The notes under the pieces are model-generated. The model did no database searches and was not told where the DNA came from. It saw only the letters and a program-made list of their open reading frames with translations. The position numbers were made by a program, and so were the translations under genes. From contig CAWGMQ010000010.1 of assembly GCA_963823665.1 (NCBI GenBank), positions 2,432,001 to 2,496,000 of the forward strand: a stretch of DNA of 64,000 nucleotides, in the 5' to 3' direction. The stretch is from an uncultured Planctomycetota bacterium (GTDB lineage Bacteria > Planctomycetota > Planctomycetia > Isosphaerales > Isosphaeraceae). Of this stretch, positions 1,200 through 57,103 are shown in pieces (the stretch's first letter is position 1; each line of letters opens with the position of its first letter).

Positions 1200-1309
1200 A
1201 AAAAAAAACCGGCGTGGTCGAACGCCTTCACGCATTCAACCACGCCGGCTTACTCGTCAACGAGCCCCCCGGCTGTCCCGGGTTGCCCTTCATCTAGTCG
1301 TCCGACGAC
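1200..1309 (-). promoter_or_regulatory. Structured leader/attenuator copy 1 (upstream of DUF3309-CsbD-GlsB)
   Basis: Consensus core, terminator hairpin CCGGCGUGGUUGAA..UUCGACCACGCCGG, U9 tract. Confidence 0.85.
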
Positions 1310-1368
1310 ATCTTTTCAGAGTCTACCGGAGCCGGCTGTCTGTTGACATCGGCTCATCTTCATCTCCC

Positions 1369-1396
1369 ATTGTGACGCGCCGAAAGAGAATAGCAA
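1369..1396 (-). promoter_or_regulatory. Putative sigma70-type promoter for copy 1
   Basis: TTGCTA-N16-CACAAT. Confidence 0.55.
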
Positions 1397-1491
1397 GTGA
1401 ATTCTTTTCTGATTCTTTTCATCTATTATTCTTGCTATTGCTAATAATCATCATATCTGATCTTATTAGCAGTCGAGTCGCCTCCGCTTGC

Positions 1492-1941
1492 CTACTTGGC
1501 GTCGCCCATGGCCCGCACCATCGCCCGGCACGTCTTTTCGCAGGCGGAACACGCCTTGGCACAGTCCTTCATCTCCGGCGCCTCGAATTTGTCGCACTCG
1601 GCCGCGCACGCCTTGCACGCCTCGGCGCATGCGGCGCAGGAATAGACCATGAGCGGGCTGCTGCTGGCCACCATGTCGGCTGACAGGTCGCAGAACCTGG
1701 CACAGTCGGCGACCAGGCGCAAAGCCTTCGCATGCTCCTTCTTGCCAAGGGCCACCTGCTCGCAACAGTGGTGGAAGGTCTCGTTGCACGAGCGAGCGCA
1801 CTGCTGGCAAGCCCTGAGGCAATCCTCGTGCCCCTCGCTGTGATGGTGCTCCTGGCTTTGGGCCCCGGCGGCCCGCCCGGTCACGGCGAGTAAACCGGCA
1901 GTGGTGGTCCCGAGCACGCCCAGTAATTCTCGACGATCCAT
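1492..1941 (-). CDS. Tat-exported four-helix-bundle copper storage protein (Csp/DUF326-like)
   Basis: MDRRELLG twin-arginine signal; many CxxxC/CxxC motifs; His-rich linker. Confidence 0.8.
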   Translation of the reverse strand: MDRRELLGVLGTTTAGLLAVTGRAAGAQSQEHHHSEGHEDCLRACQQCARSCNETFHHCCEQVALGKKEHAKALRLVADCARFCDLSADMVASSSPLMVYSCAACAEACKACAAECDKFEAPEMKDCAKACSACEKTCRAMVRAMGDAK

Positions 1942-2083
1942 GGTCGAATCTCCTGATTCTAAGAGAGATGAATTTCCGGCGGACCACCCGTTGCGGACCG
2001 CCTGGGGGAAAACGCCTCAAACGGTACTCGAAAATCCCACGCGACTCCCCGCTGTCCCCCATCGCTGTCGGAATGCTCGCCAA

Positions 2084-2569
2084 TCAATCTCCCCGTTTGG
2101 TGACGTTGGGGATCTCCACTCCCAGCGCATTCGCCAGGGCGATCTGGTGATCCTGTTCCTGCACCAGTATGTCCCGGATGTGTTCGGCCAGGGCATATTC
2201 GCCCAGCGCTTCGCACTGACGTACACGCTGCCGATAGTGATGGATCGTTTCGTTCTCGTTATCCAGGTCAAAACGCAGCATGTCTTCTGCCTTTGCCGAG
2301 GTCTTTACCGGCTTCGGCACGGCCAGCGGCATACCACCCAGATAATCGATCTGGCCGGCGATGATCAGGGCGTGCGCCAGTTCTTCCGCGGCGTGCGTCT
2401 CCAGCTCGGCAGCGATGTTCATGTACTCGGCGCCCTTGAGGGTCTGCGAATAGACCACATACGAAATGATGGCCTGGTATTCACGTGCGAGGTCGCCGTT
2501 GAGCAGGGCAACCAGGTCTTCGCGCGTGACGGCCAGGGCGTTGCCGGCATCCGGTTCTTGCTTCGCCAT
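2084..2569 (-). CDS. Ferritin-like/bacterioferritin domain protein
   Basis: LAREYQA..Y, EELAHA, E.E.I.HY, QEQDH di-iron ligands. Confidence 0.85.
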   Translation of the reverse strand: MAKQEPDAGNALAVTREDLVALLNGDLAREYQAIISYVVYSQTLKGAEYMNIAAELETHAAEELAHALIIAGQIDYLGGMPLAVPKPVKTSAKAEDMLRFDLDNENETIHHYRQRVRQCEALGEYALAEHIRDILVQEQDHQIALANALGVEIPNVTKRGD

Positions 2570-2622
2570 GTCGATCTCCTGTTGTCTGGGGTGAAACGGA
2601 TTTGATCTCCGACCGATCGGGC

Positions 2623-2832
2623 TCACGTTTGAGCGCCCCGTCGACGGCCCGCCCCGCTTTCTCCGCCGGGCCCGGAGGATTCACTGCGTCTTTGACGTCT
2701 TGAATGCCCTTGTCGATGCTCTTCCCCGCCGGCTCGGCAGGCCCCTTCGACTCACATCCGACGACGGTCGCAAACGCCACGACACAGCACTGCGACCAGG
2801 GCCGCGATCCGATAGTTCCGTTCCTTGCTCAT
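2623..2832 (-). pseudogene. Small lipoprotein, frameshifted
   Basis: Signal MSKERNYRIAALVAVL is in one frame; VAFATVVGC lipobox and GPAEKAG repeats are in another. Confidence 0.5.
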
Positions 2833-2908
2833 CCGAATACCTCCGGAAAAATGCCATGCGACGCCGGCGGACCAGGTACTGAAGACTCAGCCGGCCATCG
2901 CTCCTTGT

Positions 2909-3322
2909 TCATGCTTGATTAACGGTCCCATTCCAGGTTCCTACGGGTATGCCCGTAGCGAGTAGGAACACCTGCACCACAGTGCCGGTCGTGAATACCT
3001 GCACGACCGTGCCTGTCTTCGTTTCGATCTCTGCCTTGGCCTCGCGCACCTCCACACCGGTGATGCGTTTGATTTCATTCCGCAGCCAATCGGCCGAGTC
3101 GTTGAACAACTGCCGGTGAAACTCCTCCACCTGAGACGCCCCTTCCGGGGTCTGGGCCAGGGCCCTCTCGGCTGGCGACAAGGCGCCATGCAGGGTGATG
3201 ACCAGCGTCTCTTCGCCCAGGACCACCGTCACCGATTTGGGCACGTGGCCCGTTCGCCGTTCCTCGAAAGCCGCCGCTGCCTCGGCGACCTGTTGCGCCA
3301 TAGTCAGATTGGGCTTCTCCAT
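2909..3322 (-). CDS. DUF2294 (MpsC/YbcI-like) protein, divergent subtype
   Basis: TGHVPKSVTV..LVITLHGALSPAERAL..IKRITGVEV; similar to the three other paralogues. Confidence 0.75.
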   Translation of the reverse strand: MEKPNLTMAQQVAEAAAAFEERRTGHVPKSVTVVLGEETLVITLHGALSPAERALAQTPEGASQVEEFHRQLFNDSADWLRNEIKRITGVEVREAKAEIETKTGTVVQVFTTGTVVQVFLLATGIPVGTWNGTVNQA

Positions 3323-3367
3323 TCGCTGCCTCCCCGGCGGAACCGACCGCTCGTGTCGCCATGTGCC

Positions 3368-3478
3368 AAAAAAAAACCGGCGCGGTGGAACACCCCGAGG
3401 GTATTCGACCACGCCGGCTTACTCGTCAACGGGCCTCCCGACACAGCCGGGTTGCCCTTAATCTAGTCGTCCGACGAC
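3368..3478 (-). promoter_or_regulatory. Structured leader/attenuator copy 2 (upstream of DUF2294, lipoprotein, ferritin, Csp)
   Basis: Consensus core, terminator, U9; promoter TTGCTA-N17-AACAAT at 3570-3542. Confidence 0.85.
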
Positions 3479-3701
3479 CTCCGCCCAAGTTTTTATCGGA
3501 GCCAAGGACCGGTTTTCACACGGGACCAGGCTCACCCCCTCATTGTTTCAAGCCTGGCTGGAAATAGCAAGAGCATTGTCTTTCTTTTTGGTATGATGAT
3601 TCCTCAACAGCTTGGAAGACGGACGATCCGGAGTCGGTTGCCATCGGGCACAGTCCCAGCGCGTGGCTGCCGGCAGGGCGCGGGCCGCCCTCGAGGTCAA
3701 C

Positions 3702-4091
3702 ATGAAGTCTCAGGGCGAAATCGAAGCCGCAATCTGCGATGGGATCACGCGCTTCGAGCAGGAATACATGGGACGCGGGCCCAAGGACATTCGTGCCCAC
3801 TTGATCGATGATCTCCTCGTGGTCCGCCTTCAGGGCGTCTTGACTGCGGCCGAGCAGCATCTGGTCAAGACACTCCCGGCCGAAAAGGGCAGAGACCTGC
3901 TCAAGCAAGTGCGCACCCATCTCCTCGAGACAGCCCGGCCGCTGCTGGAGGCAATGATCAAGGATATCACGGGCGTGAACATTGTGAGTCTGCACCACGA
4001 CATCAGCACGATGACCGGTGAAGAAGTTTTGATCTTCACGCTCGCCGATCCACCGTCGGTCCGCGAATCCCGCAAAAAGTCGGGCTCTTGA
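3702..4091 (+). CDS. DUF2294 (MpsC/YbcI-like) protein
   Basis: MKSQGEIEAAI..EYMGRGPKDI..LVVRLQGVLTAAEQHL..SLHHDISTMTGEEV. Confidence 0.85.
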   Translation: MKSQGEIEAAICDGITRFEQEYMGRGPKDIRAHLIDDLLVVRLQGVLTAAEQHLVKTLPAEKGRDLLKQVRTHLLETARPLLEAMIKDITGVNIVSLHHDISTMTGEEVLIFTLADPPSVRESRKKSGS

Positions 4092-4657: not shown

Positions 4658-4741
4658 TTCGGGAAGATGGGCGCTGCAACTGAAGGGATTCCCAGCGAGA
4701 AGCAGCCTGTTCTGGCCTCATCGCCACTGCCGTCCTTTCCG

Positions 4742-4855
4742 AAAAAGAAAAAGCCGATGCGGTGGAATACCCCCAAAAGGTACTCGACCACATCGGCCTA
4801 CTGGTCAACGAGCCCCCCGGCTATCCCGGGTTGCCCCTCGCCTAGTCGTCCGAGC
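4742..4855 (-). promoter_or_regulatory. Structured leader/attenuator copy 3
   Basis: Core with CCGAU variant, terminator, U tract; promoter TTGCTT-N16-CACAAT at 4943-4916. Confidence 0.8.
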
Positions 4856-4989
4856 ATATCCAGCAAGTCGTAACAGTGCGAGTTACACGCAAGTATTCGA
4901 CTTACTGTGGCGTTCATTGTGCCAAAGAACACTGGAAAAGCAAGCGAGTAGTACCGGGTAGGTCGCATCATCGATCGGGGACGGCTCGA

Positions 4990-5910
4990 TCAAAACACAC
5001 CGCTGTGCACTCGTACCGGGCTTCCCCGGGCGATCGCCCCGGCCAGCTCGTTTTCGCGCAGGAGCGGCGTCGCGGCGGTGGGCTTGGGGAGCTTGACGCT
5101 GTGAGCCAGTCCGACGGCCGACAGCACACGAATGGCCACGTAGGTCATGTCAACTTCCCACCACCGCAGGCCGTGCCGCGCGGAGGTCTGGAAGGCGTGG
5201 TGGTTGTTGTGCCAGCCCTCGCCATAGGTTAGCAGGGCGACCCACCAGTTGTTCGTCGAGGCATCCCGGGTCTCGTGGCTGCGATAACCCCAGATGTGCG
5301 TGGCCGAGTTGACCAGCCAGGTCGTATGAAGCACAAAGATCGTGCGGACAAACCCGCCCCAGACCAGCCAGCTCATCCCGCCGAAAGCGTACAAAGCCCC
5401 GAACAACAGAATGGGAAACACAAGCTGATACTTGTCCATCCAGCGGTGAACCGGGTCCTTGTACAGATCGGGAGCCCACTTCATGTAGTACTCCGGCGTG
5501 TGGTACGAGATGACTTCCGGCGTCATCCACCAGAGCATATGGGCCCAGGCAAACCCCCGGTTGGGGCTGTGTACGTCATGCTCGCCGTCGGAATGGGCGT
5601 GGTGGTTCCGGTGATCGGCCACCCAGCCGATCGCACCACCCTCGGAGGCACAACAGCCGATCATGGTCAGGACGTATTCGAGCCACCGCGGCCGGGTGAC
5701 GAAGCTACGGTGAGTCAGCAGACGGTGGTAAGTCAAACAAATACCGATGCCGCCGGTCAGCCAGTGGAGCACCAGACATACGCCGACCGCGGTCCATGAG
5801 AAGTAGCTGGGCACAAACGCCAGCAGAGCACCGAGATGCAGCCCCCCGATCCAGATCAAGGAGGGCCAAGCGATCGCTGAGGCCGAAGGCCTGATTTTCG
5901 TCGCTGTCAT
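4990..5910 (-). CDS. Delta-9-type fatty acid desaturase
   Basis: His boxes HRLLTH, HRNHH, GEGWHNNHH. Confidence 0.92.
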   Translation of the reverse strand: MTATKIRPSASAIAWPSLIWIGGLHLGALLAFVPSYFSWTAVGVCLVLHWLTGGIGICLTYHRLLTHRSFVTRPRWLEYVLTMIGCCASEGGAIGWVADHRNHHAHSDGEHDVHSPNRGFAWAHMLWWMTPEVISYHTPEYYMKWAPDLYKDPVHRWMDKYQLVFPILLFGALYAFGGMSWLVWGGFVRTIFVLHTTWLVNSATHIWGYRSHETRDASTNNWWVALLTYGEGWHNNHHAFQTSARHGLRWWEVDMTYVAIRVLSAVGLAHSVKLPKPTAATPLLRENELAGAIARGSPVRVHSGVF

Positions 5911-6009
5911 GAGAAGTATCCTCCTCTGAGCTCGGCGATATTTCGGCCGGCTCGTCGATCAAGTCGATATCTCGCGCGAGGCAACCATTCGATGGCACCA
6001 CAAGAAAAC

Positions 6010-6118
6010 AAAAAAAGCCGCCATGGCGGAACACCCCGAGGTATTCGACCACGCCGGCTTACTCGTCAACGGGCGCCCCGCCAGGTGCGGGTTGCCCTTC
6101 GTCTAGTCGTCCGACGAC
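6010..6118 (-). promoter_or_regulatory. Structured leader/attenuator copy 4 (upstream of desaturase; weakened terminator stem)
   Basis: Core with CCCGC/GCGGG covariation; promoter TTGCTA-N17-TATGAT at 6211-6183. Confidence 0.8.
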
Positions 6119-6357
6119 TTCTTATATCGAGTCTTGCTTTGATTCACAAGTCAGGAAAAGCTTTAGGTCTATTGCAAGATTCATCATACATCGCCCGGGC
6201 CGAAATAGCAAGTGAATTGTTTGCGCTCTCGTATGATTTTCCGCGGATGGCAGGCTGCCCGAGGATGCTCGCTCCGCCGCAGTTGCACCAGGACTTTTCC
6301 AACCCGCTGGCATCGTATTTGCGAAAAGTATCGGACGTCAAACCGAATTTGGAGCAG

Positions 6358-7674: not shown

Positions 7675-7724
7675 TGCTCCCTCCGTTCCTCGAGGAGAAA
7701 ACCGACGGGCCAGTCACCGCCAAC

Positions 7725-7834
7725 AAAAAAACCGACGTGGCCGAACACCCCAGGGTATTCGTCCACGTCGGCTTACTCTTCAATGAGCCCCCCCGGACCA
7801 AGCCAGGTTGCCCTTTATCAAGTCGTCCGACGAC
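7725..7834 (-). promoter_or_regulatory. Structured leader/attenuator copy 5 (upstream of hybrid kinase)
   Basis: Core with CCGAC variant, terminator, U7; promoter TTGCTA-N16-GATAAT at 7921-7894. Confidence 0.85.
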
Positions 7835-8044
7835 ACCTGCCGTGATTCTCGCAGCGGCCGACCGCCAAATGCGATGGGCTGCATTCCCCGCTCATTATCC
7901 CGCGCAGCGCGGGAATAGCAACGCCATGCTTTGTTTTGACAGATGGAAACGATCTATCCCGCGTTCAAGATGCTCGTATTTCGCGCCGGGCGTGAACGTG
8001 CCACCGTCCGTTTCCACTTTCCCTTGCCGGAACGGGAATGCGCG

Positions 8045-12677: not shown

Positions 12678-12690
12678 CCGTTACCAACGC

Positions 12691-12802
12691 AAACAAGAAA
12701 GCCGGCGTGGTCGAACACCCGAAGGTATTCGACCACGCCGGCTTACTCGTCAACAGGCCCACCGGCAAAGCCGGGTTGCCCTTCCTCAAGTCGTCCGACG
12801 AC
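12691..12802 (-). promoter_or_regulatory. Structured leader/attenuator copy 6 (upstream of methyltransferase-nitrilase-MMPL)
   Basis: Core, terminator with cUUCGg loop; promoter TTGCTA-N16-GACAAT at 12894-12867. Confidence 0.85.
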
Positions 12803-13189
12803 ATCCGCTCATGTTTTGGTGGGATTTGCCCGCTTGCTCATCAAGCAGGCCGTGCGCCCAATTCCTATTGTCCTCTTCGGAGCGTGAATAGCAATAGCAT
12901 TTCGGCTTTTTCTCACATGAAAAGCCCCAGATCCAATATCGCCGGGTCAGGCCGTCACAATCGCCCGCCGAGTTAGCCACTTCAGCAGCATCTTCGGGAC
13001 GGTGTATTACAGCCCCGCGTAGATCGACAACGCCGCCAGGAGACCCAGGAACGCCAGCGCGAAGGCGACTCCCGCCAAGGTGCCGAGCATCGGGTGGGTC
13101 AGTGCGGTCGCGAGGAGACGGCCCGTCGATTGGCCTTCGCAGCCGGCGCGTGTAGAGCGTTTCTTTCCATCGCATCGGGTTGCCTCATC

Positions 13190-14917
13190 TCAAAACGCTC
13201 GGGTTAGAGTCTCTCTCGGATGATCCCTTCGCAACTTCCCAACTCCCGCGAGCCCGACGCGACCGAGAACCTCAACCCCCACGATGGAGATGTCGTCGTG
13301 AGCACTCGCCGCGCCGCGCCACCGTTCGACCTCGCCCACCACGGCGACGACGCTCTCCTCAAGTGGCACGGAACGGGCGCGGCCGATCGCCTTCAGCAGC
13401 CGGGCATCGCCGAACATCGCACGGGCGGGGTCCATCATATCGGTAACGCCGTCCGAGTAGAGGTACAGCCTGTCCCCGGGCGCCAGCCGGACGCACCGCT
13501 CCTCGAAGACGTCGTCCGCCAGACCGATCGGGAACCCCGGGCCTTCCAGGATCACCGGAGGTGACCCGGCGGGGACGAGTACCGGGCCGGGGTGGCCGGC
13601 GGAGACGTAGCGAAACTCCCCCGCCCTCACGTCCAGCACGCCGTAGATGATCGTGGCGAACTGCTCGGTCGTCTCGTTGTAGGGGAAGAGCTGGTTCAGG
13701 CGGTCCGCAACCTCGGCGGGGGGAGTGATCGCGGGCCGATCCGGGACGCCCGCGTCCCGGGTCAGGATCGAGGACGGCTCCGACGGAGAGGACAGGACAC
13801 GACTCAGTGCCATGGCCAGAAGGGCCGACGCGACGCCATGGCCGCTGACGTCCAAGATGTACAGCCCGACCTTGCCATCGCCGAGCGAGATGACGTTCAG
13901 GCCGTCGCCGCCCAGTTCGTCGCAGGGCCGATAAATCCAGGCGAAGGCCGCGCCCGGCACGCGGGGCAGCTCGTGAGGCAGGAACGTCTCCTGGATCTTG
14001 GCCGCCGCCTGCAGGTCGCGTGACATCCGATCGTGGACGAGCGCCAGTCGCGCATTGATCTCGTCTTTCTGGCGTTCAGCTTCGTGGAGAACCCTTTCGG
14101 TCCGCTTGCGGTCGGTGATGTCTTCGACGGCCAGGAGAATCGCCTCAAATCCCCCTCCGGGGGGAAAACCGCGGGCGTTGAGCAGCATCGTCTTCGGGCC
14201 GATATGGCTGAAATCGTGTTCCACCTCGAAATCATCGAACGAGAAGTGCAGTGGCAGTATTTCCTCGAGCAGCGTTCTTAACGCCGGGATGTTCCACTGC
14301 CCATTGCCCAATTCGTAGATGGACCTGCCTTCGGTCTCGGTGGGTTCGACCTTGAACGTCTCGTAGAAAGCGCGATTTGCCGACCGGACGCGAAGCTCCG
14401 GATCGAGGACCAGCAGCGGCTCTCGCACCGTCGCCACGATGCTCTCGGCATATTCCCTGGCCGATTCGATAAGTTGCTCGGCTTCTCTCCGTTCGGTGAT
14501 GTCCCGAAAGATGAGGACCACCCCGACGACATTCCCCCGGTCATCTTTGATCGGCGCTGCGCAGTCGTCGATGGGTCGCTTGCTGCCGTCTCTGGCGATG
14601 AGCAGAGCATGTTCGCCGAGCTCGACGGTGAGCCCTCGCTGGATCACTTTCCGGACCGGTTGCTGGAACGGCTTCCCCGTCGTCTCATGGACGATGTGAA
14701 AGACGCTCTCGATCTCTTCTCCGACCGCGTCGGCGAGCGACCATCCGGTCAGCTTCTCGGCCACTGGATTGAGATAGTTCACGCGGCCCCCCGGGTCAGC
14801 GGCAATCACTCCGTCGCCGATGCAAGAGAGTGTAATCTGGAACCACTCACGGCCGGCGACGCCCGCGTTCCCTGCCAGTTCAGCTTCCGGGTTGCTCTGC
14901 GTGTGCGAAAGGCTCAT
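13190..14917 (-). CDS. PAS-PAS-SpoIIE/PP2C phosphatase (RsbU/RsbP-like)
   Basis: Two PAS domains; GGD, DVSGHG, SAGH, SDG and DD PP2C motifs. Confidence 0.9.
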   Translation of the reverse strand: MSLSHTQSNPEAELAGNAGVAGREWFQITLSCIGDGVIAADPGGRVNYLNPVAEKLTGWSLADAVGEEIESVFHIVHETTGKPFQQPVRKVIQRGLTVELGEHALLIARDGSKRPIDDCAAPIKDDRGNVVGVVLIFRDITERREAEQLIESAREYAESIVATVREPLLVLDPELRVRSANRAFYETFKVEPTETEGRSIYELGNGQWNIPALRTLLEEILPLHFSFDDFEVEHDFSHIGPKTMLLNARGFPPGGGFEAILLAVEDITDRKRTERVLHEAERQKDEINARLALVHDRMSRDLQAAAKIQETFLPHELPRVPGAAFAWIYRPCDELGGDGLNVISLGDGKVGLYILDVSGHGVASALLAMALSRVLSSPSEPSSILTRDAGVPDRPAITPPAEVADRLNQLFPYNETTEQFATIIYGVLDVRAGEFRYVSAGHPGPVLVPAGSPPVILEGPGFPIGLADDVFEERCVRLAPGDRLYLYSDGVTDMMDPARAMFGDARLLKAIGRARSVPLEESVVAVVGEVERWRGAASAHDDISIVGVEVLGRVGLAGVGKLRRDHPRETLTRAF

Positions 14918-14927
14918 GATCCCCGTC

Positions 14928-16055
14928 TCACGGTCTTGCGTGCACGGCGCACGGCCCAGACACGGTCGAAACAGACGGCTTCGTCTCAGTCCGGCGCGAA
15001 GGCCGGGGCACTGAGGCCGGTCGACCATTCTCGGGTGCTGAGTCCACGGTTCTGGTCGTCGCCTCGATCGGGTCGTGGTTCGAGATCGCTTTGGAATGAG
15101 ACATGGGTGTCGGCCTCGTTGAAAGAAGCTTCCCCCTCTGCTGTGGCCCGGGCGCCCGTTGCTGAGACTGTAGCGGGTTCGACACCTTCTCGGCCCGCGG
15201 CTCACCGGATGCCGCTGGGACGCGGACCGTTCGCAAGTCGCTGGCCGCCCGCTCGACGTATCCGGGCGCGTAGGTCGGCGGGACCACGGTCGTGAGCTGC
15301 TTCGCTGACCAGATCCCGTGCCGCTCGTTGCCGGGGAAGTAGACGAGCGTGTCGAATGTGAACGGATTCTCCAGCACGTAATGTGAGGCGAGCATCATGC
15401 CGAACATGCAACACGGGAAGTCGGCGGCACGCTCCATGTCGCCGAGCCGGATCGGCTTCGAAAGCTCGATCCCCGCCGCCATGAACGCCTTCTGAGTCAT
15501 CTCGACGCAGTAGAGGGCCGTGTCATCGAGGCACAGCTCGTAATCGAAGGGAACCTGGTCCTGGTAAACCTTGCGGCAATACGCCAGGACTTTGGGGATG
15601 GCGCCGAGGAACTCGGGCTGCAGGCGCTTCACGCCGATGTAACCCACGTTGTCAAGGACCCAGACGCACCACGGCTGTCGAGCGCCGGCCGGGCGCGTCA
15701 TGTCGTAGACGACCGGGCCTTCCTTCTCGAACGCGATGATGCCGGTGTGCGAGAACCGGCTGTTGCTGCAATTCGCGACGAACCGGCTAAACGGAAAGTA
15801 GCCGTGGAGCAATCGGGCATCGCCCGCGCGGAAGACGATGTCGCCGTCGCGGAGCACCTGGCGGCCCCATCGGTCCCAGCGCGCCATATCGGGCGTGATG
15901 ACGATGGGCGGCAACTTCCCCTCATCGCGGGCCGTGGTGGCCAACGGACCCCAGTAGCTCCCCGCGAAGCCGGGCGGCGCCATCCGCTCGCTCATTTCAC
16001 GTTCTTCGGGGGGAAACGCCATCAACGAGACGAGCCAAAGGACGATTCCAGACAT
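14928..16055 (-). CDS. YiiX/YebB-like permuted papain (NlpC/P60) protein with a chimeric C-terminal tail
   Basis: LRDGDIVFR, FSHTGI, LYCVE motifs; tail derives from the 18.6-19.1 kb duplication. Confidence 0.75.
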   Translation of the reverse strand: MSGIVLWLVSLMAFPPEEREMSERMAPPGFAGSYWGPLATTARDEGKLPPIVITPDMARWDRWGRQVLRDGDIVFRAGDARLLHGYFPFSRFVANCSNSRFSHTGIIAFEKEGPVVYDMTRPAGARQPWCVWVLDNVGYIGVKRLQPEFLGAIPKVLAYCRKVYQDQVPFDYELCLDDTALYCVEMTQKAFMAAGIELSKPIRLGDMERAADFPCCMFGMMLASHYVLENPFTFDTLVYFPGNERHGIWSAKQLTTVVPPTYAPGYVERAASDLRTVRVPAASGEPRAEKVSNPLQSQQRAPGPQQRGKLLSTRPTPMSHSKAISNHDPIEATTRTVDSAPENGRPASVPRPSRRTETKPSVSTVSGPCAVHARP

Positions 16056-16107
16056 GAGCCGTAAGCCTCGATTCTTGTCCTTGATAGCCGCCGGTGTCGG
16101 ATCGTTG

Positions 16108-16216
16108 AAAAAAAAAGCCGGCGTGGTCGAGGACCCCCAGGTCCGCGACCACGCCGGCTTACTCTAGGACGAACCGCCCGGCATGGCCGGGCTGCCCTTC
16201 ACTTAGTCATCCGACA
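16108..16216 (-). promoter_or_regulatory. Structured leader/attenuator copy 7
   Basis: Subfamily B core (GUCGGAUGAC), terminator, U9; promoter TTGCTT-N18-TATCAT at 16313-16284. Confidence 0.85.
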
Positions 16217-16509
16217 AATTCAAATCATTTCCGGAAGTCGACGTGCGGTTGTCGCATATCAACACCCACCAAGAACATCTACGATGATACGCGCTGGGAC
16301 GAGAGAAAAGCAAATCTCTTGAGTCTTTATGACCAAAAATCGATCCGGACACTGCGGTCCCGATACCAGTAACAGCGGTCCAGAAAGCAACAATCGTCCT
16401 CGAGCCGCCAGAACACGGTAGCATTTGCCGCGCCGTGGGCCGCGTTCTAAGCGCGTTTGGCACGGAGGATGCTGGCAATTGAACCCGACATCTAGCCGGC
16501 CTGCAAGGA

Positions 16510-18575
16510 ATGCCTCACCAAATGCCCGATGAACGTCGACATGGCCACTTACAAAGCCGAGTTCCTCTGGCACTACCATGGCCGGCCGTCGGGATGGGCC
16601 TGCCATCACCGGGAGAACGGCGACGTCCGGCAAGCACCGGCAAGCCTGGTGTCACTCCGCATTGGGCTTCCAGCGCGAAGGACGGCGTCGGTACCGCACT
16701 CGGCCCGAATACGCATTCCACGAGCTTGGTCTGGTTCACCCTGGGCCACGGCATTCTGACCGAGATTTTCTACCCTCGCATTGACCGGGCATGTACCCGC
16801 GACCTCGGCCTCATCGTCACCGACGGCAAAAACTTCTTCTCGGACGAAAAGGTTGACACCGAGCACCGCGTCGAATACCCGGTCGAGGGTGTTCCCTTAT
16901 ATCGGTTGATCAACATCTGCCGGCAGGGCCGGTATCGGATCGAAAAGACAACCTTCGCCCACCCTCACCAGGACGCCGTCCTCCAGATCACTCAGTTCAC
17001 GGCGATTGAAGGGCGAATCGAGGACTACCATCTGTACGTGGTCTTGGCGCCGCACCTCGGGAACCGGGGGGCGGGCAATTCCGCATGGCTGGGCGATCAC
17101 CGGGGGGTGCCGATGCTGTTTGCTCGCCGCGGCGGCCAGGCACTGGCCCTGGCGTGCTCGGCACCCTGGATCAGGGGCTCGGCCGGGTACGTCGGGGCTT
17201 CCGACGGCTATGAGGATCTGGCGCGGAGCAAGCAGATGACCTGCGAATACGACCGGGCCGAGGATGGCAACGTCGCGCTTACGGGCGAGGTGGACATCAC
17301 CTGAGTTGGACCGGTATCCAGCTCGGGGAGACCGCCTTGCCCCTCCTGCTCCTCGACCTGCTTCGTCGCCATGACGGGCTTCCTCACGAGGATGTTCCGC
17401 GGTTCTGGCCCATGGTCCGGCGCACCGCCGGCTCCATCGTTCGGAGCGGTCCCTCGACCGCGCAAGACCGCGGGGAGAACGAACCGGGATATACCCCCTT
17501 CACGCTGGCGGCCGCGATCGCCGCGCTGTTGATCGCCGGCGAACTGGCCGATGAAAAGGGTGAGAGCACCGTAGGCGCCTACCTTCGGGAAACGGCTGAC
17601 GCCTGGAACGCCGCCATCGAGAGCTGGCTCTATATCACGGGCACCGATCTGGCCCGCCGGCTCGGGGTCGAAGGGTACTACGCGCGGGGTATCCCGCCCG
17701 CGCTAGATCACGAATCCACACCCCGCCTCGGCCACGTGACGATGACGCAGACGACCCCCACCAAGAACGGAACCGCAGTCACCGAAATCGTCAGCGTCGA
17801 CGCACTCGCGCTGGTCCGGTTCGGCCTGCGCGCGCCCGACGACCAGAGGATCGTCAATACCGTCAAGGTCATCGACGCCCTCCTCAAGGTCGAGACTCCT
17901 CGCGGGCCCTACTGGCGCCGCTACAATGGCGACATTTATGGGGAGAAGGCGGACGGTTCCCCCTACGATGGCAAGCCCGACGGGATCGGACGCGCCTGGC
18001 CGCTGCTGACCGGCGAGCGCGCCCACTTCGAGCTGGAGGCGGGACGTAAGCAGGAGGCGATCAGCCTCTTGCACGCCATGGAATCCCTCGCCGGCGACAG
18101 TGGGATGATCCCCGAGCAGGTCTGGGACTCAGGCGACATTCCCGAGCGCGGCCTCTTCAAGGGGAGACCATCAGGCTCGGCCATGCCCCTGGCCTGGGCC
18201 CACGCCGAGTATGTCAAGCTGCTGCGCTCGATCCAGGACGGCCGCACGTTCGACCGTCCTCCCCAGACGGTGCGGCGGTACCGGCAGCAGAAGGTGGGCT
18301 CCCACCTGGCTGGCTGGCGGTTCGACTACCCGCGCCGGGTGATCTCGCCGGGCGAGGTGCTGCGAGTGGAAACGCTGGCGGCAGCCGTGGTGCACTGGAG
18401 CACGGACGCCTGGAAGACGAGCCACGATTCCCCGATGCGCGACACCGGCCTGGGCATCTACGTCGCCGACCTCGACACCGCTCGGCTGAAGAGTCGCGAC
18501 ACGATCGAGATGACGTTCCACTGGTCCGATCCCGACCGTTGGGAGGGGAAGAATATCACCGTGGTCGTGGTTTGA
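16510..18575 (+). pseudogene. Glucoamylase/glucodextranase (GH15) pseudogene
   Basis: N-domain stops at 17304 and resumes in another frame at WTGIQLGETA; the WPRD segment is missing; PEQVWD and SAMPLAWAHAEY are retained. Confidence 0.85.
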
Positions 18576-19058: not shown

Positions 19059-19121
19059 GGGTGTTGGCCTCGTTGAAACAATGTCAAACGATCCGCCGCC
19101 GGCTGCATGCCGAGATCGTTG

Positions 19122-19230
19122 AAAAAAAAAGCCGGCGTGGTCGAAGACCAAGAGGTCCGCGACCACGCCGGCTTACCCGTCGACAGGCGACCCGAAATAC
19201 CCGGGCCGCCCTTCGTCCAGTCATCCGACA
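19122..19230 (-). promoter_or_regulatory. Structured leader/attenuator copy 8
   Basis: Subfamily B core, terminator, U9; promoter TTGCTT-N18-TACCAT at 19324-19295. Confidence 0.85.
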
Positions 19231-19445
19231 AATCAAATCAGTTCCGGGAGCCCACATACGGTTACCCTATGTCGGCTCCCGTCAAACATACGTCATGGTA
19301 CGCGCGGCGGCGAGAGAAAAGCAAGCCTATTCGCTCTGCACCCGGAAAGTGCGTCCCTGAGTTCTTGGGCAAGGAAAGCCCCGGCTCGACAGGAAGAAAT
19401 GTCCGCGCACTGAGGGCTCGAGGGCACGTCGGCCGGCTCCTGGCG

Positions 19446-23633: not shown

Positions 23634-23843
23634 GAATCCGCGAGAATTCGAGGATACCTGCCAGCCAGCGCCAAGGGGCCCGAACCTCGGGCGGCGTCCC
23701 GCGAGACGTTCTGGTCTCAATAATACCGGTCGCAACACCGGGGACTTGTGTCCTCTTGCCGTAGCGTGCATACTGATGAATGTTCTGCGGGATTCGACAA
23801 GAGACAAGCGCACGTCGGCTCCCGGAAATGACATGATTTGATT

Positions 23844-32357: not shown

Positions 32358-32452
32358 ACGACCGGCTCGCTGCCCCGGCGGCTGAAAATCAAGGAGATGA
32401 CTTGGAGAAGGCCGTAGGCCGGAATTCACGACGGTCGGCGAGCCACCATTCC

Positions 32453-33607: not shown

Positions 33608-36600
33608 TGTTCTTCCTCGCTAAAGCACACGTGACCACGGTCCCCGCGGGCTTCGCCGGCTCGATTGTCAAGGTCGCGCCGATGATCGCCGCGCAGTTGC
33701 GCATGATGCGGAATCCCAATCCGTCGTGGTTCTCGGCCGGGTGATCGGGGATGCCGATACCGTCATCCTGCACCTTGAGGACCAGGAGTTGATCGGACAC
33801 CACGGAAATGCGGACGTTCCGGCACCGGGCGTGCTTCACCGCGTTATGAACCGCTTCCTGGGCGATGAGATAGAGGTGGGTTGCGATGACGTTGTCCTCG
33901 ACAGGGACCGGCGCGGGGCAGTCAAACTTGCATCTCACTTTATCCTTTTGCTGCGTACGGCTGGCGAGGTCCGAAAGCGCGGACATGAGCCCTTCAGCAT
34001 CGACTGAAACGGGTAGGAGCCCGCGCATGACGGCCCGAAGCTCTTGTTGGCTGCGCTGCAATCCCTGCACCAGCACCTCGACCAACTGCGACGCCTTCGC
34101 GGGATCCGAACGCAGGGTCTCGGCCAGGTCGCCGGCAAGCATGTTGAGCGCGGTCAGTTCCTGGCTCACGCTGTCGTGCAGATCCTGACCGATGCGTCGC
34201 TGCTCAAGAGATGCGATCTCCACGACCTCGCGCTCCAGCTCCTTGCTCCGGCTGATGTCGCGCCCGGTCACCGAGGCACTCACGACCTTCCCATCGCCAT
34301 CCCGGATCGGCGAAATCGTGATCGCCACCGCGCGACGCCGCCCGTCCTTGCGGATCCGTTCGGTCTCGAGCTGCTCGACGTACTCGCCGCGCGCCAGCGT
34401 GGCCATGACCTCGGCCCATTCGGCGGTGCGATCTTCCGGAACGAGCATCTTGACCGATCGGCCCACGGCCTCCTCGCGGCTGTACCCGTAAAGCCGCTCG
34501 GCGCCGCCGTTCCAGGTTCTGATCGTCCCGTCGAGGTCCTTGCTGAATATCGCGTCCACAGAGTTTTCGACGACGGCGGCAAGGCGCCGGATGACCGCGT
34601 CCGCGGCCGCTTTGCGCTCCGTGATATCCACGAACGTAATCACGACTCCATCGATCCGGTTGTCCAGGGTGCGATAGGGCATGATCCGCCGAACGCACCA
34701 GCGGTCGTCCTTGGTGAGGACCTCCTTTTCGCGCGGCGTCAGGTCGTGCAGGAGCTCTTGGGCCTCGTGCAGCAGTTCGGCGTCGGTAAAGCTCGTGACC
34801 AGGTCGGCAATCGGCCGGCCAATATCGGTGGCAATCAGGTTGAACATGCGCGTGGCGGGCGGCGTGAACAACTTGATCCGGAGGCGGGCGTCCAGGAATA
34901 CGGTGGCTATATGGGTCGCGTTCAGGAGATTAGCCATGTCGTTACTGGCCGACTCCACTTCCGCGACCTTGTCATGGAGCTGGCTGTTGACGGTGCTCAG
35001 CTCTTCGTTGAGGGATTGCAGCTCTTCCTTGGAGGTCTCCAGCTCCTCGTTGGCGGACTGGAGCTCCTCGTTCATCGACATGACCTCTTCGTTCGACGCC
35101 TTGAGTTCCTCGTTGGCACTCTCCATCTCCTCGATGGTGCCTTGCAGGTCATCACGCGTGGTCTCCAGCTCCTGCTCAAGCCGGCGCAGCGACTCCGGCT
35201 CTGCTGGCTCAGCGAGTGTTCGTGCATCGTACAGCGCTTCACCGGAAGGATTCGGCTGCTCGTGGAACGAGATCAGCAGCAGACCTGCGGCCTGTTTGGG
35301 CGCGTCGAAAGGCTCCGCCCCGATGTTCACCCGGCGGACGCCGCCCTCATGGCGCATCATCACGCCTTCGATGCTTTGAGCTGCGTTTTCGCGGATGGCC
35401 CGGCGGATAACCACGCGCAGCTTGGGCTCGAGGGACTTGCGCACAGAGAAAGCAGGTGCTGGGTCGGTGGACCGCCTGGCTGAACAAGGTAGTCCTCGGT
35501 CGGCCCGGCAAAGTGCAAGACCTCGTAGTCGCGGTTGATCACAACGCAAGCCAGACGAAACCGGCGCAACAAGGAGTTCTGCGCCAGCTCCGCCAACTTC
35601 GGGGGAGCATGGGGCGGGCTGGCCGGTTGCGGCTTGGCCGGGCGTGGCTCCGATTGCATCGCCGGGAATTGCAAGCCGTCCGCTCGTGCCGGGCCGATGC
35701 GCCGGTAAATGCGCCATTTCTTGGAGACCGGCTCGAACAGGTCGGTTTGCCCGCCAACCGTCTCCGACGGTCCCAGGAACAGGTAGCCTCCCTCTTTGAG
35801 CGCGAAGTGCAACAGGGTGATTATCTTCTTCTCCATCTCCGGTTCGACGTAAATCAGCAAGTTTCGGCAACTGATCAGGTCCATCCTGGAAAAGGGGGCT
35901 TCGGTGATCAGATTCTGCACCGCAAACGTCACTGTTTCTCGCACTTGTTTGCTGATCTGCCAGGCGGATTCGTTCGCCCGCGTGAAAAAGCGGGCCAGCC
36001 GTTCCGACGAGACATCGGCGGCGATGCCCTCGGGATAGACTCCCCGGCGGGCGAGCGCGAGCGAGTGTTCATCGACATCCGTGGCGAAGATTTGCAGGCG
36101 GCGGAAGTTTTGCGCCGCAGTCTGATGTTCGAGCAGCAGCATGGCGAGGGAATAAGGCTCTTCACCCGTCGCGCAACCGGGAACCCAGACTCGCAAGGGT
36201 GCGTCGGCATTCTTCGCGTGAATGAGCGGGGTGATGACCTCCGCCTCCAAAGCGTTGAAGGCATCCGGGTCGCGGAAGAAACTGGTCACGCTCACCAGGA
36301 GATCGCGAGCGAGTCGCCTGACCTCCTCCGGATGTTCGCGCAGGTGAGCAAGGTATTCCGCGACGTTATCGAAGCGGCTCAGTCCCATGCGCCGTTCCAA
36401 CCGCCGACCGAGTGTTTTCTTGCGATAGCTGTGAAAATCGAACTTGGTGCGGGCATAGAGGAGAGCGAGCACCTGGTTGAGCTGGTCCGGGTTCTCACTG
36501 ACGGCGGCGACCCCTCCCGCTCTCTTGTGGCCGTGCTGCACGTACTTGACGAGCGCTTCCGGCATCTTCTCGACGGGCAAGACATAGTCGGCCAGACCCG

Positions 36601-55060: not shown

Positions 55061-55450
55061 TCAACGGCCCCGGAGCGCCAGCCCGGCGACGAGCCCGGCC
55101 ACCAGGCCGATGCCAAACGCCGCGATCACCGTCTCAGCCGGGTGGCTGCGGACCAGACCCTCGGCATTGTCGTAGCGCTGGCGGATCTGATCGCCCGCCT
55201 GGTGGACGTACCGGCCGGCGGCCTCCGAAGCATGCGCCACCGCCGCTGAGCCGCGCGAGGCCGCTTCCGTGAAGAAACGCTCGATCGACTCACGCCCCTC
55301 GCCGGTCTTTTGCTCGATCCGGCCGACGAGCTGCTCGAACTTCCCTTCCAGCACTGCGAAATCGTCCTCTGTCAACTGACTCCAGCGCTGCTTTGCCAGA
55401 GCGCAGAGGTGTTTCCATTCTCCCTGAATTGCCTGCATGTTGGACGCCAT
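55061..55450 (-). CDS. CsbD-like/DUF883-like protein (paralogue of 30312-30701)
   Basis: Direct sequence similarity. Confidence 0.8.
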   Translation of the reverse strand: MASNMQAIQGEWKHLCALAKQRWSQLTEDDFAVLEGKFEQLVGRIEQKTGEGRESIERFFTEAASRGSAAVAHASEAAGRYVHQAGDQIRQRYDNAEGLVRSHPAETVIAAFGIGLVAGLVAGLALRGR

Positions 55451-55647
55451 GATCGGTGGGCCTTCTGGTTAGGGGAGCGGCCGGTGCGATTCCGGCTTCC
55501 CTGGTGGAATTCAATTTAATCTCGATGAGTCATCATGAACACTCGCGAACTGCCCGCGGCAGCTCTCACAGAGGTCGTCGACAAACTCGGAAACGCCCTC
55601 GAATTCAGCCGAGCTCGAACCGGGCGCACGAGCCGTCCCGTGACCGT

Positions 55648-55860
55648 TCACGGACGTCTGATCAGCCATCCCAGAGCAACTCCTATGCAGAGCGTGATAC
55701 CTAGAGCCTTGACGGGTTCCTTCACCAGGAAGTCCCGCACCACTGCCGTCCCGTCGGCCAGCCGCTCACGGGCGAACGCCACGTCCTGCCGGCCCATCGC
55801 CTTGAGCTCGTCCAGTTGCGGAGTAAACTCCGCATTCATCCCTCGAACATGATCATTCAT
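55648..55860 (-). CDS. Small DUF883/ElaB-like membrane-anchored protein
   Basis: VRDFLVKEPVKALGITLCIGVALGWLIRR. Confidence 0.6.
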   Translation of the reverse strand: MNDHVRGMNAEFTPQLDELKAMGRQDVAFARERLADGTAVVRDFLVKEPVKALGITLCIGVALGWLIRRP

Positions 55861-56390
55861 CGTCGTATCCTCCAAAAAGTTTGTTTCGATCGAAGCCGCC
55901 GCTGGGCGCACTGTCTTGACGCGCCACCGGGCCCATCCTGCCGCGCCGTTCTCTCGGACGACGCCGAGAGACCGGTCCCGCCCATCGTATTCATCGGCTG
56001 CTGGTAGTCGAGCCAATGGAGCATGTAGTTCTGGCCCGCACGGATGGCCACGGGGAACAGAAAGTTCCAGGGGGCGAGCAAAAGATTCCGGCCGGTCTTG
56101 CGCGGCTTCTGACCCTTCTGGGCGGGTCCCGTGACCGGTAGAAGAGCCCCGGCTGGATCGGCCAGACTCGCCGGCTCGCCCGCGGCTCTTGGATGACTTC
56201 CGGTGTAAGCCAGGTAGCCGGCCGCAGCCGCGGCGCCCAGACCGATCCAGGGATACATCCACGTGTACCGTCCCCAGTCCATGACCGCCTCGGCGCCGGC
56301 GACGGATTCGCTCACGTTTGTATGACGCTCGCGCCGGATCTCCGCCATCCGATCAAAAATCTCTTGGACGTCGTTCGATCCCGTGACCAC
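55857..56390 (-). CDS. Hypothetical membrane protein (paralogue of 30730-31212)
   Basis: Direct similarity; GGAGGG RBS. Confidence 0.65.
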   Translation of the reverse strand: MVTGSNDVQEIFDRMAEIRRERHTNVSESVAGAEAVMDWGRYTWMYPWIGLGAAAAAGYLAYTGSHPRAAGEPASLADPAGALLPVTGPAQKGQKPRKTGRNLLLAPWNFLFPVAIRAGQNYMLHWLDYQQPMNTMGGTGLSASSERTARQDGPGGASRQCAQRRLRSKQTFWRIRR

Positions 56391-56410
56391 GATTCCCTCC
56401 CCGAGGGCCC

Positions 56411-56617
56411 TTAGCGGCCTACGTTCTTCATCTTCTCGCCGACGTCGTGCACAACATCCTTGCTCTTCTCGGCAACGACGTGCGCAGCGTCCCCGATCTT
56501 CACACCGGCGTTGTGCGCGGCGTCCTTGACCTTCACACCGGCGTCGTGCGCGGCGTCCTTGACCTTCACACCGGCGTCGTGAATTCCCTCTTTCAGCGTC
56601 TCACCTGTGTTCGACAT
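56411..56617 (-). CDS. LEA-like 11-mer repeat protein
   Basis: HDAGVKVKDAA tandem 33-bp repeats; AGGAG RBS. Confidence 0.7.
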   Translation of the reverse strand: MSNTGETLKEGIHDAGVKVKDAAHDAGVKVKDAAHNAGVKIGDAAHVVAEKSKDVVHDVGEKMKNVGR

Positions 56618-56738
56618 GACCTGGCTCCTGCATTGATGTTGAGAATCAAGAAAATGCCTCCCACGCGAATGCTCCCGCGGCAAGGCAAACCTGGCCGGGA
56701 CCACCCCGGCTGATCACACACTCGCAAATTCTCATTTC

Positions 56739-56767
56739 ATTAGAACTTAAATCTTTTAAAATGTCAA
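56739..56767 (-). promoter_or_regulatory. Near-consensus sigma70 promoter in an AT-rich patch
   Basis: TTGACA-N17-TCTAAT. Confidence 0.6.
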
Positions 56768-56996
56768 TAGATTTATCATGGCGTTTCGCGTGATTCGCGA
56801 GTGGCCGCCCGGGGCCAGAGCCATTTCCACATCGAGAGCAAACCCTCGATCGTCCGCAGCGATTCCGCCGCACTGCATGTTTTCCCCTGTTGAATCACGC
56901 ATCGACAGCACAGTGAACATTCGCGAATACAGTTTATTGGGCCACCCCATTACGAGAGTGGTTGGCGCTGGCGATCGAGCCACAAGGGCGCGAACG

Positions 56997-57103
56997 AAAA
57001 AAAACCGGCGTGGTCGAGAACCCTCAGGTCTTCGACCACGCCGGCTTACTTTTCGACGGACCACCCGGAAGAACCGGGCTGCCCTTCGTCTAGTCATCCG
57101 ACA
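56997..57103 (-). promoter_or_regulatory. Structured leader/attenuator copy 12
   Basis: Subfamily B core, terminator, U8; promoter TTGTTA-N18-TATGAT at 57198-57169. Confidence 0.85.

Follow-up and report, generated by a model that had tools for sequence, protein, structure and literature searches.

ON-type transcriptional riboswitches with terminator platforms are exemplified by the adenine (pbuE/ydhL) and Na+ (DUF1646) classes, and proteins of the BglG/SacY/LicT type antiterminate at ribonucleic antiterminator (RAT) hairpins. We analyzed a stretch of 64,000 nucleotides, referred to below as the window, from a Planctomycetota genome (G000; 16.46 Mb in 12 contigs, 91.9% complete; window at C10:2432001-2496000), and describe here twelve copies of a leader RNA that are located on it. 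Judged from its sequence, each copy constitutes a full unit, made up of a sigma-70-like promoter, a variable 5′ RNA, a rod-like hairpin and a terminator with a U-tract. The leader is highly conserved and forms a real RNA family that we found described nowhere. We consider it rather probable that the copies serve as 5′ leaders of stress-gene operons, each with a conditional intrinsic terminator, and would function as ON-type attenuators.

Like the ON-type riboswitches, this RNA is a 5′ leader in sense orientation to its gene, it has a structured domain with covarying stems, and the 3′ strand of its predicted helix P1 is at the same time the 5′ base of the terminator, such that a stabilized P1 should give read-through. 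Unlike them, its gene set implies no ligand, its core is a rod without a junction and it is present in up to 26 copies per genome; it is also tied to a DUF2294 gene, fronts what appears to be a general-stress regulon and has no match in Rfam. With the RAT systems it has in common an imperfect hairpin whose internal loops are conserved and which shares a few bases with the terminator, a geometry that would suit a dimeric protein clamp, and a putative regulator gene near the target, but the candidate protein is in this case DUF2294/MpsC-A, which has no known RNA-binding role. With respect to the genes involved, CsbD, YflT, Dps, BON/OsmY-like proteins, a hibernation factor and small membrane proteins, together with PP2C, HPr-like and hybrid-kinase signalling genes, recall the sigma-B (Bacillus), EcfG (Alphaproteobacteria) and RpoS regulons, whereas the mark shared by the genes studied here is an RNA leader plus terminator behind a sigma-70-type promoter, and not an alternative-sigma promoter.

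Two published motifs also need to be compared. In the literature searched, we found no published cis-regulatory candidate associated with planctomycetes other than Rhodopirellula-1 (PMC2864571), which has no entry in Rfam. The Rhodopirellula-1 consensus (AAC..GAU..GAAC...hairpin...GUUAUC..ACGUU) describes a single hairpin without terminator and without the UCGGAYGACU or AGUAAGCCG strands. An earlier note on this DNA had named Rhodopirellula-1 among the motifs to be compared; set by eye against its published alignment, the leader was clearly different in sequence and structure, and it does not belong to that family. The nearest printed analogue is the motif named YjbJ (WRC-39-1), a weak riboswitch candidate with 40 representatives located 5′ of csbD-like yjbJ in Streptococcus only (PMC11109978). 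It likewise consists of a hairpin plus intrinsic terminator leading a CsbD-family stress gene and differs in its reported restriction to Streptococcus and to one gene type.

The covariance model R1 was built from the twelve copies, which align over ~120 nt with a mean column identity of 71% and 42 invariant columns. When run on the window, R1 recovered all twelve at the places and on the strands given in the earlier note (106.7-124.8 bits, E 5e-31 to 3e-26; Table 1). The remaining 13 rows consisted of 12 opposite-strand echoes of the palindromic terminator (≤51 bits) and one row at chance level (9.8 bits, E 0.62). As the note had also stated, alignment and folds showed that a GC hairpin plus U-tract closes every copy ahead of the next gene. 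Its figure of ~110 nt for the extent of the element is too short, because a conserved promoter-like sequence, TTGCTA-N16/17-cACAAT, is located ~85-100 nt upstream of the core. Genome-wide, R1 detected 26 loci in G000, 25 of them at 77-125 bits and one at 48 bits. These are clustered: 13 of the 26 are located inside the window or close to its edges, and a second group, of about five, occupies C10:296-321 kb.

None of the 4227 models of Rfam 15 matched at gathering score across the whole window. The motifs of Weinberg 2017 are reportedly included in Rfam. For six loci from six genomes, the only Rfam rows at E≤1 were an unrelated transfer-messenger RNA (tmRNA) and chance microRNA or small RNA rows (20-28 bits, far below the cut-offs). 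No description of this RNA was found in the literature searched, outside of which lay the PMC5737381 supplement. With neither an Rfam 15 match nor a published description found, the view that the element is not a recognized family was upheld.

In an extended alignment the promoter-like site of the window copies is preceded by an A-rich stretch; copies 7, 8, 9 and 12 have the form TTGcTT-N18-TAnnAT, and a strict consensus scan flagged two sites in the window, those of copies 4 and 5. In 173 copies drawn from many genomes, the site most like a sigma-70 promoter ends mostly 50-75 nt upstream of the core, and for copy 1 the promoter-like sequence predicts a transcript start ~55 nt ahead of it. The stretch from promoter to core consists of ~50-60 variable nt, often folding into a hairpin with a semi-conserved CGGCUCC 3′ arm. 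This upstream hairpin, P0, is probable: per-sequence folding gave a mean z of -0.99 against -0.19 in a control region, and at least six contiguous pairs were present in 40% of the sequences, against 27% with a permuted partner and 23% with a reversed arm. RNAalifold returned no consensus structure for P0 on the 173 aligned upstream regions. Two other ideas were abandoned. An anti-antiterminator, in which the linker UCCGAU would pair with GUCGGA, was seen by eye in a few copies only, and a leader peptide was dropped since the ATG overlaps the -10 box and no open reading frame (ORF) is conserved. The internal loops did not match the general consensus of K-turn or loop-E motifs.

Two strands of the core are near-invariant, UCGGAYGACU on the 5′ side and AGUAAGCCGRC on the 3′ side. 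These are predicted to give P1 (UCGG/CCGR), a 3x3 purine-rich internal loop (AYG/AAG) and P1b (ACU/AGU), and the rod is completed by the hairpin P2 (GGGC-AA-CCCGG, a variable loop of ~4-7 nt, CCGGG-GG-GYYC). The terminator is a 19-bp perfect hairpin followed by 6-9 U, and the 3′ strand of P1 forms its base. Unpaired bases are highly conserved (A15, Y16 and G17; A65, A66 and G67; a GAA bulge; the A.G pairs in P2), those of the internal loop being near-invariant across orders and classes. The core is a simple rod, in which neither a junction nor a pseudoknot was detected.

For mutual-information and folding tests we collected 176 unique copies; the model-built alignment A6 comprises 107 copies. 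The top covarying pairs in the mutual-information scan were those of P2 and the terminator, and the non-canonical pair 33-49 covaried as well, being A.G or else G-U, C-G or G-C. In A6, 95.2% of the cells were in standard pairs compared with 87.5% in shuffles, and the covariation score was 0.346 compared with 0.190; none of 500 shuffles reached either value. Slid controls dropped to 35-49% paired and to scores of at most 0.107. Double-sided changes were found for 28 of the 34 pairs, including all nine of P2 and 17 of the 19 in the terminator. The RNA-level fold with covariation proposed in the earlier note is thus strong for P2 and the terminator, while P1 is nearly without informative covariation. 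Of the three compensatory changes cited there, only that in copy 4 (CCCGC/GCGGG) alters both strands; the other two affect one side each, with U-G becoming U-A in copies 5 and 11 and G-U becoming A-U in copy 11.

The pattern used to retrieve loci L059-L187 leaves the P1 and P1b bases no freedom to vary, so the invariance of these helices is largely by construction and only ~48 model-found copies are informative for P1. Two of the P1 pairs (columns 7-11 with 89-93) never vary and the others show few double changes, namely A-U three times at 7-93, C-G once at 8-92 and U-A once at 9-91. Among the model-found copies, two variants are compensated (L014, L046) and two are wobble-compatible (L044; U9-G91 in L025). 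In L046, U9-A91-U145 keeps both the P1 pair and the terminator pair, and A7-U93-A143 keeps both pairings in L078 and L049. Position 92 is only A or G, either of which pairs with U8, and its terminator partner covaries (AU 69, GC 28, GU 7); the scan pattern itself allowed only A or G at this position, and the purine restriction is informative only in the model-found copies. In the nascent RNA, taken up to the 5′ arm of the terminator, the minimum-energy fold contained P1 and P1b in 169 of the 176 copies, whereas the full-length fold contained the complete terminator in 171 of them. When P1 is enforced in the full-length RNA, the average cost is 9.0 kcal/mol. The note's further claim that the terminator takes its 5′ base from the 3′ strand of P1 was supported by folds and alignment alike. 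The predicted geometry is that of a classic ON-type attenuator with termination as its default state.

Position relative to genes was determined for 49 elements with long flanks, counting ORFs at or above the Pfam cut-off that start within 300 nt of the U-tract. A same-strand gene was present at 30 of the 49 elements and an opposite-strand gene at one, in agreement with the sense orientation noted earlier. The control set of 80 opposite-strand ORFs yielded one real gene (PPK2, convergent, at L054) and one sub-threshold row. This PPK2 gene (L054:24-856, G030:C13) is split into two ORFs covering Pfam positions 91-225 and 5-85, which may reflect a frameshift. Several gaps between U-tract and gene are short, ~9 nt at copy 6 (about 9-14 nt from the end of the U-tract to the operon start) and 30-60 nt at many others, and therefore leave no room for a further promoter ahead of the gene. 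Copies 2 and 7 are located in divergent intergenic regions and hence are not terminators of upstream genes. Between two species of the same genus the whole unit is kept in place.

The genes downstream of the copies, here and in relatives, encode CsbD, DUF3309, DUF1328, Transgly_assoc, YflT, BON, Dps/ferritin and the S30AE hibernation factor (HPF), MpsC five times and CsrA twice, as well as fatty-acid desaturase, an HPr-like protein, response regulators and hybrid kinases, a YiiX-like enzyme followed by a PAS-PP2C phosphatase, and a methyltransferase/CN-hydrolase/MMPL operon. Such gene content is typical of the general stress regulons governed by sigma-B, EcfG or RpoS. Family assignments thus indicate that the downstream genes form a general-stress set and a coherent regulon, and the leader may be a common on/off switch of the stress response in some planctomycetes.

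Among 61 genomes of relatives, R1 was positive in 21, made up of 15 of the 36 from the same family plus members of four further families within the class. Searched for the exact pattern, species-representative genomes yielded at least 129 loci. Among the matches listed, 127 were in planctomycete-labelled metagenome-assembled genomes, and the lineages were Pirellulales, Gemmataceae, Isosphaeraceae, Planctomycetaceae, Thermoguttaceae and Phycisphaerae/Tepidisphaeraceae, with two labelled Kuenenia. In an even draw of 150 genomes from the phylum (≥90% complete), for which 23 R1 candidates per genome were scored, the RNA type of the window, variant A, was present in three. A viral contig collection contained one exact pattern match. 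These searches indicate that the RNA is confined to Planctomycetota and is patchy within the phylum. Sequencing runs with matches were soil metagenomes in which it had a small share (≤0.10 of sampled words), their contigs coming mostly from relatives; no RNA-seq run from an isolate turned up.

The presence of the RNA goes together with that of MpsC (DUF2294, PF10057). Of the relatives, 20 of the 21 RNA-positive genomes encode MpsC compared with 5 of the 40 RNA-negative ones; for the control family CsbD these numbers were 20 of 21 and 21 of 40. Synteny sets MpsC apart from the controls CsbD and DUF3309: in roughly 18 of 20 relatives (hand count from coordinates) a high-scoring mpsC-A gene lies divergent from a copy at a distance of at most ~400 nt, and that copy often has the paralogue mpsC-B next. 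The arrangement is present even in genomes with one or two copies (G046, G058, G003), and in G024 a diverged copy (19 bits) is located between the two mpsC genes. In the even draw, all three variant-A genomes were among the 13 that are MpsC-positive and showed the same layout, and neither RNA model, R1 or the variant-B model R2 described below, matched in the 137 MpsC-negative genomes. In four relatives with MpsC only (G010, G040, G055, G056) there was no RNA near the mpsC genes with search filters switched off. More than 100 database entries share 80-90% identity with MpsC-A. At G033:C5:717394-717730, the mpsC-A gene beside an RNA copy is reduced to three short PF10057 fragments and has apparently decayed.

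Run without filters beside mpsC-A of other MpsC-positive genomes, R1 gave weak matches of 20-28 bits, and these regions contain a second RNA type, variant B (L195-L211 and L213-L215). Variant B is found in other planctomycete families, usually in one copy per genome, and consists of GGCAGAU, a covarying hairpin, GAUAGGCCG and a terminator (e.g., L205:1501-1598 and L206:1501-1603). Its sequence, GGCAGAU...GAUAGGCC, differs from that of variant A. Read antiparallel, its strands give GGC/GCC, a tandem A.G/G.A loop and AU/AU, and follow the plan of variant A (UCGG/CCGR, AYG/AAG, ACU/AGU): helix, loop, helix, covarying hairpin, overlapping terminator. P1 was present in eight of nine nascent folds, and its 3′ strand was taken by the terminator in seven of nine full-length folds. 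Variant B is usually located just downstream of mpsC-A and has its own TTGAC-N17-TATAAT promoter. R2 matched 8 of the 150 even-draw genomes, all of them MpsC-positive; new from this search were G070 and two extra copies in G156. The two models cross-match weakly, R2 scoring 34.2 bits on window copy 8. Downstream of variant B are a GTP-type phosphoenolpyruvate (PEP) carboxykinase (PEPCK) gene in G065, G070 and G130, a PEPCK-like or DUF4914 gene in G162 and G188, mpsC in G095 and, via a weak R1 match, in G123, and a bicarbonate-transporter fragment in G156. In G070 (L213:580-1944, G070:C69), one ORF directly 3′ of variant B begins with an MpsC domain (residues 9-115) and continues into PEPCK_N and PEPCK_GTP domains; it represents a fusion or else two neighbouring genes read as one. 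The Sbt_1 bicarbonate-transporter sequence in G156 (L210:665-1097, G156:C1) is present as two short ORFs of 84 and 49 amino acids and is probably a broken gene.

Together, these results suggest the following mechanism for the ON-type attenuator. A strong housekeeping-type promoter would fire, and the nascent RNA would first fold as a rod formed by P1, the 3x3 internal loop, P1b and P2. The emerging 3′ arm of the 19-bp terminator would then have to displace 4-5 bp of P1 to finish its stem beside the U-tract. If P1 is unheld, transcription would terminate and yield a short RNA of ~165-175 nt; a factor holding P1 and the internal loop would let the polymerase read into the stress genes. The analysis establishes the RNA family, the structures of P2 and the terminator, the orientation, the make-up of the regulon and the association with MpsC; the switching role of P1, suggested mainly by the folding and by the distant variant B with the same layout, the ON polarity and the effector are inferred. 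The effector would act in trans and might be MpsC-A, perhaps loaded with a small molecule; this putative binding partner is the leading candidate, as yet unproven, and a directly bound small ligand is nearly as likely. Extended further, DUF2294/MpsC could supply the protein component of a novel antitermination switch made of RNA and protein, whose multiplied leaders run the general stress response, a proposal that we regard as tentative. In its simple form, one RNA beside mpsC-A would control genes for PEP carboxykinase, bicarbonate-related genes or mpsC-B. Multiplication of this RNA in some soil planctomycetes would have given 10-26 leaders, and in those genomes conditional antitermination behind ordinary promoters, in place of an alternative sigma factor, would run the whole general stress response.

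Several observations weigh against a switch of this kind. In 22 of 106 sequences the outermost P1 pair (7-93) does not form, three variants among the model-found copies break P1 (L043, L025, L045), and P1 and P1b are too invariant for covariation to prove them. Only 4-5 bp switch between the two folds and, with P1 forced, a hairpin of 14-15 bp persists 4-5 nt before the U-tract and might still terminate. Constitutive termination or plain leakiness is possible because the full terminator is far more stable. A soil-metatranscriptome contig (record 22, 3162-3474) spans the copy 2 terminator into mpsC-B, but it is a weak hint of read-through, as it comes from a metagenomic relative and may reflect DNA carry-over.

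Other results speak against an effector role of MpsC-A. The RNA is accompanied by DUF3309 nearly as faithfully as by MpsC (19 of 21 RNA-positive and 6 of 40 RNA-negative genomes), and therefore part of the MpsC signal reflects inheritance of a gene island. G022 is a possible exception to the MpsC rule, having no MpsC match and an RNA copy, a diverged one (L050:1501-1632, G022:C5; 33.9 bits, UUGGAUGACU...AGUCACCGGAC) located 5′ of DUF3309 and CsbD. Seven of the eight R2 genome matches are the model's own training sequences. MpsC-A is not basic (~17 lysine or arginine against 19 aspartate or glutamate residues, hand count), and fold searches with its predicted model (predicted local distance difference test, pLDDT, 89.4) revealed no clear RNA-binding fold and assigned no fold. 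The best Foldseek matches in the PDB were YslB, Bet3/TRAPP and H-NOX, with E ~0.01 and template-modelling (TM) scores of ~0.4, and a wide VIA-align search gave Z≤6.6, all to generic alpha/beta sandwiches. A sequence search of solved structures gave no match for MpsC-A, and an ESM Atlas search in which PF10057 was skipped gave no usable match. A predicted MpsC-A plus MpsC-B complex scored 0.02, which speaks neither for nor against such a complex.

Established antiterminator families do not fit. The CAT_RBD domain (PF03123) of BglG/LicT-type regulators had no matches in G000, the genome being 91.9% complete, and the control was positive in 4 of 14 reference genomes. An ANTAR leader would have two tandem hairpins with conserved hexaloops, the second of them overlapping the terminator, and not a single P2 hairpin with a variable loop; the two ANTAR genes of G000 are located on contigs C8 and C1, none near any copy. 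A CsrA/RsmA-binding RNA, which would expose several GGA motifs in its hairpin loops, was rejected as well: there is one invariant GGA per core, predicted inside P1 and the internal loop and not loop-exposed. CsrA (PF02599) has ten paralogues in G000, one of which (C5:1203638-1203811) is directly downstream of an RNA copy.

The strongest rival leaves the attenuator as proposed and changes only the effector: the rod of P1, loop and P2 would bind a small molecule or ion directly, as a true riboswitch, and MpsC would co-occur as the oldest regulated or neighbouring genes, tied to the same metabolite. We hold this to be possible, though doubtful. Extremely conserved unpaired bases between covarying stems, and an expression platform in which the terminator overlaps P1, are what such a switch would show; the PEPCK-type and bicarbonate-transporter genes behind variant B suggest a metabolic signal, and the MpsC-A model, which shows no RNA-binding fold, weakly resembles small-ligand-binding folds. 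The broad stress set behind variant A, however, points to no single metabolite, the rod lacks a detectable junction or pseudoknot, and mpsC-A, usually not downstream of the RNA, resembles a regulator gene rather than a regulated one.

It is unlikely that the terminated transcript of ~170 nt is itself the product, that is, a family of trans-acting small RNAs working by base-pairing or protein titration, with read-through being incidental. Such a family would account for the strong promoter-like site and very strong terminator of each copy, for default termination in the predicted folds and for the 26 copies in one genome, and a variable 5′ part joined to a conserved 3′ part is reminiscent of guide-plus-scaffold RNAs. 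The 5′ part is often merely a hairpin, however, and the strong orientation bias (30 versus one of the 49 elements) and the gaps of ~9-60 nt, which leave the leader promoter as the only one of the next gene, argue for a function in cis. The invariant GGA and the ten CsrA paralogues, one of them directly 3′ of a copy, also speak for such small RNAs, but the GGA lies inside P1.

Less probable still is a constitutive structural leader without sensing, in which a stable 5′ module and a leaky terminator would provide fixed expression, insulation against transcription from upstream or RNase processing sites, with stress control exerted elsewhere, for example by sigma factors or by the PP2C, HPr and kinase genes of the island. 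The ~9 kcal/mol by which the terminator exceeds the alternative fold, the P1 helix without firm covariation and the RsbK/RsbY-like parts encoded on the island (hybrid kinases, PAS-PP2C phosphatase, HPr-like protein) speak for it. An insulator would not need internal-loop bases that are near-invariant across orders and classes, though, nor would it explain why the P1/terminator overlap is kept in the sequence-divergent variant B and why the RNA is restricted to MpsC-containing genomes. Finally, a mobile or selfish intergenic repeat resembling a miniature inverted-repeat transposable element (MITE) or a repetitive extragenic palindrome (REP), with promoter and terminator by chance, might be multi-copy, clustered (13 of 26 in or beside the window) and patchy in the phylum at very high sequence identity, but is highly improbable given consistent orientation to recurring gene classes, compensatory changes that preserve RNA helices, a single exact match among viral contigs, orthologous copies that stay in place between two species of a genus, and no terminal inverted repeats at the unit ends in the alignments (target duplications were not searched for).

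The coordinates of the copies and of the genes around them are collected in Table 1. Some neighbouring sequences deserve comment. In the operon after copy 2, the ORF at 1492-1941 has a weak match (46.7 bits, cut-off 100) to the Csp1 family of four-helix-bundle copper storage proteins. Within 13190-16055, the YiiX-like gene (longest ORF 14928-16055) and the PAS-PP2C phosphatase gene (longest ORF 13190-15205) share 278 nt, and the true start of the latter is therefore further downstream. The PAS-PP2C phosphatase, the hybrid kinases and the HPr-like gene resemble signalling of the RsbK/RsbY type. Several ORFs passing a GC3 filter at 31264-35379 have an odd GC distribution over the codon positions (position 1 ~0.38, position 2 ~0.65) and are probably in the wrong frame or on the wrong strand. 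In another genome (L045:361-722, G053:C1), a tmRNA gene (RF00023, 162 bits) is located ~0.8 kb upstream of the mpsC-A/RNA/mpsC-B module.

Table 1. Leader copies, associated sites and neighbouring genes on the window (positions within the 64,000 nt; bit scores are for model R1 unless stated otherwise).
Feature	Position	Strand	Evidence and context
Transgly_assoc gene	263-667		next after the DUF3309 gene of copy 1; Pfam
CsbD-like gene	570-914		next after the DUF3309 gene of copy 1; Pfam
DUF3309 small membrane protein gene	915-1079	-	first gene after copy 1; Pfam, translation
Copy 1	1192-1312	-	120.3 bits; core P1, P1b, P2 and 19-bp terminator
Copy 1, 9-U tract	1200-1208	-	scan and sequence reading
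Copy 1, terminator-like site	1251-1206	-	scan and sequence reading
Copy 1, promoter-like site	1369-1396	-	TTGCTA 1396-1391, 16-nt spacer, CACAAT 1374-1369; alignment
Dps/ferritin-like gene	2084-2626	-	operon after copy 2; Pfam, NCBIfam
mpsC-B	2909-3322	-	PF10057, ~26% identical to mpsC-A; first gene 3′ of copy 2; Pfam, alignment
Copy 2	3360-3481	-	118.6 bits; core module, between divergent mpsC-A and downstream mpsC-B
mpsC-A	3702-4091	+	DUF2294/PF10057, 129 amino acids; divergent from copy 2; Pfam 130 bits
Copy 3	4737-4860	-	106.7 bits
Fatty-acid desaturase gene	4990-5910	-	after copy 4; Pfam
Copy 4	6001-6121	-	119.2 bits; 5′ of fatty-acid desaturase gene (Pfam)
Copy 4, promoter-like site	6183-6211	-	TTGCTA-17-TATGAT; consensus scan
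Copy 5	7715-7837	-	107.6 bits; 5′ of hybrid histidine kinase gene (Pfam)
Copy 5, promoter-like site	7894-7921	-	TTGCTA-16-GATAAT; consensus scan
Copy 6	12685-12805	-	124.8 bits; 5′ of methyltransferase/CN-hydrolase/MMPL operon (Pfam)
Copy 7	16101-16221	-	123.9 bits; divergent intergenic region, neighbour 16510-17304 (+)
Copy 8	19115-19235	-	118.7 bits; also matched by R2, 34.2 bits
Copy 9	23839-23959	+	116.1 bits; 5′ of HPr-like gene (Pfam)
HPr-like phosphocarrier gene	23998-24372	+	after copy 9; Pfam
Copy 10	24516-24637	+	119 bits; 5′ of DUF1328 and BrkB/YihY (Pfam, translation)
DUF1328 small membrane protein gene	24731-24919	+	after copy 10; Pfam, translation
Copy 11	29720-29840	-	108.6 bits; 5′ of two alpha/beta-hydrolase genes (Pfam)
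Copy 12	56988-57108	-	123.9 bits; 5′ of two small ORFs without family match

If the leader is a working switch, it would represent a new class of regulatory RNA, and it would mark out, purely from sequence, a planctomycete general stress regulon, a subject on which no publication was found in the literature searched. The stress response would then be coordinated by transcription attenuation and not by a dedicated sigma factor. DUF2294/MpsC is a widespread protein family for which, to our knowledge, no function has been reported, and its near-exclusive link with the RNA offers a testable function for it. What kind of signal may be involved is hinted at by the position of variant B next to PEP-carboxykinase genes and a bicarbonate-transporter gene.

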